Assembly: GCA_036308125.1 (NCBI GenBank)
Contig: JAXJWH010000136.1
Location: 23,499 to 87,498 of the forward strand
Reading direction: 5' to 3'
Source: Agathobacter sp.
GTDB taxonomy: Bacteria; Bacillota; Clostridia; Lachnospirales; Lachnospiraceae
Length of the DNA stretch: 64,000 nt
The translations under genes and the position numbers were made by a program. The notes beneath the pieces were generated by a model, which saw only the letters and a list, made by a program, of their open reading frames with translations, did no database searches and had not been told where the DNA came from. Each line of letters starts with the position of its first letter. Position 1 is the stretch's first letter. Positions 12,517 through 12,533 of the stretch are shown here, piece by piece.

Positions 12517-12533
12517 GTCACATATTGGTCACA
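12517..12533 (-). promoter_or_regulatory. Two direct GTCACA repeats 11 bp apart, upstream of fibre operon 1
   Basis: GTCACA at 12517-12522 and 12528-12533, 74-90 nt upstream of the start codon. The context TGTCACATA-NNN-GTCACAC is shared with 18263-18280. Confidence 0.5.

Follow-up and report, generated by a model that had tools for sequence, protein, structure and literature searches.

The window analysed here, i.e. the whole 64-kb stretch of DNA, carries two operons for fibre and adhesin proteins with a candidate regulator gene between them, and the genes around the two repeat elements described below are all on the minus strand (Table 1). Operon 1 starts with a 965-aa adhesin containing SpaA, PA14 and fibro-slime domains. 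Its second gene codes for a SipW-type signal peptidase, which matched the sigpep_I_arch model (archaeal-type signal peptidase I) with 93.4 bits versus 51.85, and is followed by three BsaA/TasA-like proteins with SipW-type signal peptides and weak similarity to the BsaA family. The 267-aa and 203-aa proteins exceeded the cut-off of the model for SipW-dependent signal peptides (TIGR04088); both a SipW peptidase and SipW-dependent substrates were found in the target operons. Peptidase_M73 was matched by the 203-aa protein only (27.7 bits, cut-off 22.5), and there in the N-terminal half only.

With the sipW-bsaA operon of Clostridium perfringens and tapA-sipW-tasA of Bacillus subtilis, the cluster shares a SipW-type peptidase and SipW-dependent signal peptides of the BsaA/TasA kind (PMC7395162). 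It differs from both in that matches of four proteins to the BsaA-family model (TIGR04090) stayed at 30–49 bits, below the cut-off of 60, and in that it adds a giant SpaA/fibro-slime adhesin and a fusion of a class B sortase with a signal peptidase. To our knowledge, those two systems are regulated by other factors and not by a SARP.

Several of these genes are arranged differently in relatives. The SipW-like S26 signal peptidase and the class B sortase, joined here in a single 406-aa protein, are separate genes in several relatives, and the 589-aa membrane protein of operon 2 corresponds to two genes (~260 and ~350 aa) in most of them; the latter fusion is shared with a few Agathobacter genomes (L006, L016). 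Only in this genome do L-serine dehydratase genes lie between the regulator and operon 1; among relatives, more than 40 have the box and then the adhesin gene directly after the regulator. At the end of operon 1 is the gene for a 156-aa cytoplasmic protein which adjoins the regulator even in loci where all fibre genes were lost (L010, L011, L013, L034), and which may be a partner of the regulator. Its AlphaFold2 model (pLDDT 89, pTM 0.82) shows an alpha+beta fold, and the protein had no match in Pfam or NCBIfam. It was also considered as a rival DNA-binding protein and rejected, since this confident model has no helix-turn-helix and no significant match in PDB.

Upstream of operon 1, two copies of GTCACA are found on the plus strand at 12517–12522 and 12528–12533, exactly where a preliminary description had placed them and 74–90 nt 5' of the RBS-preceded ATG of the adhesin gene. 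A second plus-strand pair (18263–18268 and 18274–18279) precedes operon 2. Both GTCACA-N5-GTCACA sites (12517–12533 and 18263–18279) are thus upstream of minus-strand operons and read RTGTGACY-N3-RTGTGACN on the coding strand. On recount, the 21-mer AGTGTCACATATTGGTCACAC and its counterpart AATGTCACATAGATGTCACAC (18261–18281) were identical at 17 of 21 positions, as had been noted. The further remark that the two sites are nearly equally far from their start codons holds poorly: operon 1 has 74 nt, and operon 2 has 63 nt if the RBS-preceded start GTG 18200 is used or 50 nt if ATG 18213 is.

Exactly two matches to GTCACA-N5-GTCACA were found in the window when up to one mismatch was allowed, each with 0 mismatches, and window shuffles gave a mean of 0.23 matches, with 2 of 100 shuffles reaching two. 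The TGTCACA heptamer alone was not enriched in the window (14 observed, 9.7 expected); the signal is the repeat pair and not the single word. Taken alone, these window statistics are only suggestive. A weight matrix derived from relatives (at least 8 bits) found the same two sites and nothing else in the 64-kb window. The palindromic appearance of TGTCACA is peculiar to this genome, as relatives have C or T after GTGAC. A palindrome reading, i.e. a CRP-, Rex- or FNR-like dimer on TGT-N-ACA, was rejected: the conserved unit is RTGTGACY, and 146 of 146 sites in relatives were direct repeats, with none inverted.

Each box is followed by a -10 hexamer, and in both operons the offset from the proximal GTGAC to the start of this hexamer is exactly 10 nt. 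No TTGACA-like -35 hexamer was present 16–18 nt upstream of either -10, and a canonical -35/-10 promoter was discarded for both sites because a sigma-70 consensus scan called none at these -10 hexamers. For operon 1, the same scan gave only an alternative weak sigma-70-like pair, TTGATA-16-TAAACT (12510–12483), whose start would fall further downstream. The operon 1 start would be a purine at about 12493–12495, and if transcription starts 7–8 nt after the -10, the boxes would span approximately -40 to -19. An alternative sigma factor was also rejected: no spacer of the sigma-70 family would accommodate GTGAC, with its proximal copy 10 nt and its distal copy 21 nt from the -10; the hexamer itself resembles a housekeeping -10, and the conserved cluster contains no sigma gene. 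Rfam gave no match at gathering threshold in the entire window, leaders included. A possible third, degenerate repeat was seen upstream of the distal repeat of operon 2 (Table 1); relatives had no conserved signal at this place (profile positions -12 to -3), and GTGTTAC does occur in them as a half-site variant.

Table 1. Positions of the main features in the window.
Feature	Position	Strand	Description
Operon 1	5227..12443	-	Adhesin, SipW-type peptidase, three BsaA/TasA-like proteins, peptidase-sortase fusion, 156-aa protein
156-aa protein gene	5227-5697	-	Last gene of operon 1
Peptidase-sortase fusion gene	5725-6945	-	406 aa
Gap at pilin gene	8387-8399		13 nt, no box
Adhesin gene	9546-12458	-	ATG at 12443
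-10 hexamer, operon 1	12501..12506	-	TATATT, 6 nt after box
22-bp activator box (candidate), operon 1	12513..12534	-	11-bp direct repeats; coding strand GTGTGACCAAT ATGTGACACTA AATTGA TATATT; matrix 34.6 bits; architecture as in 121 sites of relatives
L-serine dehydratase genes	12621-14181	-	Beta and alpha
Candidate regulator	14345..15559	-	404 aa; OmpR-type winged helix (~1-100), BTAD (104-246), degenerate GGDEF (~270-400)
Membrane protein gene	15713-17482	-	589 aa
Operon 2	15713..18200	-	BsaA-like protein with SipW-type signal peptide (start probably GTG 18200), 589-aa membrane protein
-10 hexamer, operon 2	18247..18252	-	TATAAT, same 6-nt gap after box
22-bp activator box (candidate), operon 2	18259..18280	-	Coding strand GTGTGACATCT ATGTGACATTA GAAGTA TATAAT; matrix 29.8 bits
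Possible third repeat	18284..18290	-	GTGTTAC, degenerate, 10 bp (not 11) upstream of distal repeat of operon 2; status uncertain
Intrinsic terminator	18309..18330	-	Of upstream greA; shields operon 2 promoter from read-through
Chemotaxis-like signalling cluster	20711-35067	-	
Response regulator, HD-GYP-type	32570-33640		Within the signalling cluster
Response regulator, OmpR/PhoB family	39025-39696		

Conservation of the box in Lachnospiraceae

Approximately 500 homologues of the regulator were found, mainly in gut and rumen metagenomes. Taking one genome per species, we assembled a comparative set of 80 Lachnospiraceae loci (1.40 Mb; regulators 37–62% identical) from genera including Agathobacter, Roseburia, Lachnobacterium, Acetatifactor, Lactonifactor, Robinsoniella and Acetitomaculum. 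The pattern GTGAC-N6-GTGAC occurred 121 times in 68 of the 80 loci, as against a mean of 1.5 and a maximum of 3 in mononucleotide shuffles; such counts are inflated by synteny, and related genomes are non-independent samples. All 121 copies were on the regulator's strand with an 11-bp period and none had a 10-bp period, and the -10 offset was the same in nearly all of them. A relaxed matrix scan added 25 sites in which one half-site is degenerate (GTATGAC or GTGTTAC), again all on the regulator's strand. The information profile of 114 unique sites consisted of a distal R-T-G-T-G-A-C-Y, a proximal R-T-G-T-G-A-C-T and T-A-T-A-n-T located 10 nt after the proximal GTGAC, and the spacers were random (~0 bits). 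In all 114 the -10 hexamer had A at the second and T at the sixth position. Besides, the position 7–8 nt after the -10 was purine-rich and never C, as expected for a start site. On these comparative grounds we regard the repeats as a real, conserved promoter element across gut Lachnospiraceae, and RTGTGACY-N3-RTGTGACY-N9-TATAnT offers a sequence rule by which the regulon can be sought in all genomes of the group.

The sites were specific with regard to the genes that they precede. At a matrix threshold of at least 8 bits, a site was found upstream of 43 of 44 homologues of the first gene of operon 2 (98%) and 40 of 44 homologues of the operon 1 adhesin (91%), and upstream of none of 69 neighbouring UppP, phosphopantetheinyl-transferase and GreA genes. 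The motif stands beside regulator homologues in 68 of 80 species-level loci and before the same two operon types, and the earlier interpretation of the repeats as an operator for the SARP-like regulator is well supported by these sequence comparisons. The box is therefore a defined candidate operator for binding and reporter work. Homologues of the 267-aa pilin-like protein had a site in 21 of 44 cases. This site is a third, internal promoter which is absent from the window, where the gap at the pilin gene contains no box (Table 1). It was seen before 267-aa-type pilins at L001:17111, L002:16140, L004:16213, L008:17052, L025:18170, L037:18900 and others, often with the degenerate half-site GTATGAC.

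The 12 site-less loci had neither an 11-bp direct repeat with a -10 nor a matrix match of at least 10 bits. In 11 loci the regulator was kept, the fibre genes were all lost and no site was present; a different motif in the 12 site-less loci was considered and dismissed, as the target genes are simply missing there. Gene order changes among the loci and the linkage stays: for example, in L119 the regulator is transcribed divergently from two sites, and in L064 it precedes the operon-2 type. A box was also found directly before the regulator gene at L057:6549 and L075:9630 as well as L087:5283, L120:231, L127:293 and L141:922, lineages that include a distant clade of only ~34% identity (L087, L120, L127), which suggests autoregulation in these species; in the window, the regulator's own promoter is ordinary-looking and has no box. 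Tandem units of box plus -10, 76–182 bp apart, occurred at L003:13712/13796, L005:11949/12031, L015:11503/11579, L072:18851/18952 and L119:6244/6426. Two exact repeats inside a SecA-like gene (L021, L026) were assigned to chance, since the -10 is missing.

The regulator and its GGDEF-like domain

The product of the candidate regulator gene matched Trans_reg_C of Pfam with 32.1 bits (cut-off 26.2; residues 31–92) and BTAD with 71.8 bits (cut-off 22.1; residues 104–246, full model length), the BTAD domain directly following the winged helix, and NCBIfam indicated similarity to AfsR/SARP families. In a Foldseek search with the AlphaFold2 model (52 homologues; mean pLDDT 86), the best PDB match was EmbR (2fez, E 2.5e-10). 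The SARP domain of AfsR was also matched in two transcription initiation complexes: 8hvr_I and 8k60_I, the latter with a target TM-score of 0.79 and an rmsd of 3.3 Å for 249 aligned columns. The DNA-binding domains of EmbR and AfsR are part of what aligned with the model, and many GGDEF domains, matching the C-terminal third, ranked after these two proteins. These above-cut-off domains and the predicted fold confirm that the protein is of the SARP type, as the preliminary description had proposed. Sequence similarity to AfsR itself is weak (phmmer E 0.86, profile E 0.005). No Response_reg match was obtained for the regulator and its winged helix is N-terminal, which differs from the receiver-domain organization of OmpR/PhoB proteins.

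Residues L66, N68, L69, Y71, R72 and R74 of the recognition helix were identical in 100 of 100 homologues (27–100% identity). The recognition helix is invariant and the GTGAC core likewise, and we count this stasis on both sides in favor of the pairing of regulator and box. In a weak alignment, N68 and R72 align with T and R of the AfsR helix RTYASRLRK; they may correspond to the base-contacting T88 and R92 of AfsR (PMC10936776), as far as such a poor alignment can indicate.

The C-terminal third is predicted, from both sequence and model, to be a degenerate GGDEF domain attached to the SARP core. In the profile search against PDB sequences, SDSQY of the regulator replaced GGDEF and aligned to GGEEF of SadC (full profile alignment, RDGDVLARYGGEEF; LRVGDVAAKYSDSQFIILLP of the regulator aligned with LRDGDVLARYGGEEFVLLLP of SadC). 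RVGD is located five residues before SDSQY, and RVGD-VASKY-SDSQY corresponds to the canonical RxxD register. GGDEF scores were sub-threshold (Pfam 19.3 versus 23.8; TIGR00254 16.3 versus 37.4). Across 100 homologues the consensus was S-D-S/T-Q-F/Y, so the GG(D/E)EF active-site motif was absent, and the domain cannot make c-di-GMP. RxxD was kept, with R341 in 99 and D344 in 98 of 100 homologues. Conservation of RxxD together with the S-x-x-Q-[FY] signature argues for a retained ligand or interface function. The same combination of GGDEF fold, lost GG(D/E)EF and RxxD five residues upstream is shared with the degenerate-GGDEF c-di-GMP receptors PopA, PelD and SgmT, which use the RxxD inhibitory site for binding and none of which is fused to a SARP DNA-binding module; the present regulator is a putative receptor. 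SgmT is reported to be a c-di-GMP receptor (PMC3509222).

With EmbR of Mycobacterium tuberculosis, its best structural match, the regulator shares a SARP core followed by one C-terminal signalling domain. This extra domain is an FHA domain reading phosphothreonine in EmbR and a GGDEF-like domain in the regulator. The list of sensor domains found on SARP cores is thereby extended.

Promoter model and rival explanations

In SARP promoters, direct repeats are spaced at 11 or 22 bp, and 8 bp separate the 3' repeat from the -10 (PMC10936776); heptameric repeats over the -35 are typical, two or three repeats occurring (PMC10972967). The afs box consists of two 11-bp repeats from -40 to -19 that overlap a poor -35 (PMC10936776), and AfsR contacts the first 8 bp of each 11-bp repeat (PMC10936776; PMC10972967). 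As a side-by-side dimer, AfsR engages sigma region 4 and core subunits (PMC10936776). The preliminary description had likened the present repeats to SARP sites, and their geometry agrees with the published one (PMC10936776): the period is 11 bp, the repeats cover the -35 region, and a short, constant distance separates them from the -10. The period was 11 bp in 121 of 121 copies, the -10 lies 8 nt after the heptamer GTGACYN and 6 nt after the 11-bp repeat, and the position relative to the start would fit as well. Compared with AfsR and the afs box (afsS promoter of Streptomyces coelicolor; cf. ActII-ORF4, DnrI, PimR), the shared features are 8 conserved and 3 free positions per repeat, the 6-nt gap to the -10, a probable span of ~ -40 to -19, overlap with the -35, and the OmpR-type DNA-binding and BTAD domains (regulator fold, target TM-score 0.74–0.79).

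The differences are in lineage, targets and sensor domain. The host here belongs to low-GC Clostridia (Lachnospiraceae) and not to actinomycetes, and identity to AfsR is only ~18%. The repeat is RTGTGACY rather than TCGAGCG or CGTTCATCG, and the -10 is near the consensus TATAAT. Surface fibre, adhesin and sortase operons take the place of antibiotic clusters as targets, and as extra domain there is a degenerate GGDEF instead of NOD/TPR, LAL or FHA. The promoter architecture is canonical for SARPs, in an unusual lineage and with unusual targets and sensor domain. SARPs are known almost only as antibiotic-cluster switches in actinomycetes, and the same promoter logic is now seen in Lachnospiraceae, which are major gut commensals.

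We propose that the promoter core would consist of the 22-bp box (two RTGTGACY-NNN), a 6-nt gap and TATAnT, and would be read by the housekeeping sigma factor, the box substituting for the -35 hexamer. Two copies of the regulator would bind side by side on one helix face, one per repeat, via the recognition helix ALKNLMYRLRK, and this dimer would recruit RNA polymerase by the contacts seen in the AfsR structure, to sigma region 4 and to core subunits. In this genome, two promoters would make up the regulon, one for the adhesin/SipW/pilin/sortase operon and one for the BsaA-like/membrane-protein operon. The C-terminal GGDEF-like domain is probably a sensor gating dimerisation or activity. Strand-fixed enrichment, target specificity, co-loss with the fibre genes, linkage through rearrangement and SARP geometry all lead to the reading of a SARP activator. 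The boxes are almost certainly binding sites of the neighbouring SARP-type activator, driving the fibre and giant adhesin genes, and the model as a whole, i.e. an activator-dependent promoter of box and TATAnT read by the SARP-type regulator with the housekeeping sigma, is in our view quite likely.

Other explanations were weighed against this model. OmpR/PhoB regulators bind as tandem winged helices to 7-bp direct repeats with an 11-bp period which replace the -35 (Pho box), and one member of this family is encoded in the window (Table 1). Such a different winged-helix protein could bind the boxes, the SARP-like gene being a syntenic neighbour, and many sites among the metagenome matches listed had no SARP gene in the fetched flank. 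In comparison with PhoB, the regulator has no receiver domain and has a BTAD. However, no response regulator is conserved in the cluster and nothing ties the one in the window to the cluster in other genomes, whereas the SARP gene remains a few kb or less from a site despite rearrangements, carries one at its own promoter in some species, and has a recognition helix that is as invariant as the motif. We consider binding of the boxes by a different winged-helix protein very unlikely. A remnant of promoter duplication or mere chance, without function, might account for the similarity of the two sites as far as the modest window-only statistics go (the 2 of 100 shuffles given above), but the motif is kept at orthologous promoters of loci whose regulators are only 37–62% identical while spacers and flanks are randomised, and 121 copies were found against 1.5 expected. 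This possibility is negligible, and the comparative data exclude it.

The SARP-like protein might also bind the box as a repressor or anti-activator, occluding the -35 and spacer until a signal such as c-di-GMP releases it. The box does overlap the polymerase footprint, and a sensor-like C-terminal domain could act in either direction; site loss in loci without fibre genes is neutral between repressor and activator. Nevertheless, a good -10 with no -35 hexamer in the 114 unique sites is a hallmark of activator dependence, and in geometry the box matches the activating AfsR complex exactly, so that repression is very unlikely. We therefore retain the SARP-type activator as the preferred reading.

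With regard to the signal, the earlier hint at c-di-GMP now has a sequence basis in the degenerate GGDEF domain with conserved RxxD, and control by c-di-GMP itself is what we infer beyond this. By analogy with other degenerate-GGDEF receptors, c-di-GMP sensing would be the most economical reading. It is possible, though doubtful at present, that the family represents a c-di-GMP-sensing SARP of class II type, in which ligand binding at RxxD licenses side-by-side dimerisation on the RTGTGACY repeats, the second messenger directly switching on fibres, giant adhesin and sortase. If true, a nucleotide second messenger would for the first time be an input to a SARP, a SARP regulon would for the first time be defined outside actinomycetes, and BsaA/TasA-like fibres would be under messenger control in abundant gut Lachnospiraceae (Agathobacter, Roseburia, Lachnobacterium). 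The box and its regulator also provide a testable link of c-di-GMP to adhesion or aggregation in organisms that are genetically hard to study.

Among the window's genes is one for a response regulator with an HD-GYP-type domain, which makes c-di-GMP turnover plausible in this organism. It is part of the chemotaxis-like signalling cluster (Table 1), which also contains a hybrid histidine kinase-DegV fusion, a hybrid kinase with Hpt, another kinase, an MCP, CheA-CheW, CheB and CheR. Synteny of this cluster was discarded as evidence of coupling, as the kinase and MCP part is syntenic in close relatives only, including ones without fibre genes.

Box sites in metagenome contigs

A motif-first scan of metagenome contigs yielded at least 120 stretches. 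Among the matches listed (120 stretches), 36 had recognisable cluster genes and 84 had no regulator in the fetched flank. The regulon may be larger in some species, the regulator may be located beyond the fetched flanks, or another factor may use the motif. Our literature searches found no publication on the box regulon or on a SARP-GGDEF fusion. Among the matches listed, consensus-like boxes recurred away from cluster genes at L082:1979, L107:2646 and L097:6289 (site on +). Sites of this kind preceded a surface protein of 1727 aa with Ig repeats and a membrane anchor at its C-terminus, or a 148-aa protein, or stood at an apparently orphan position, and may represent extra regulon members. They come from abundant gut organisms.
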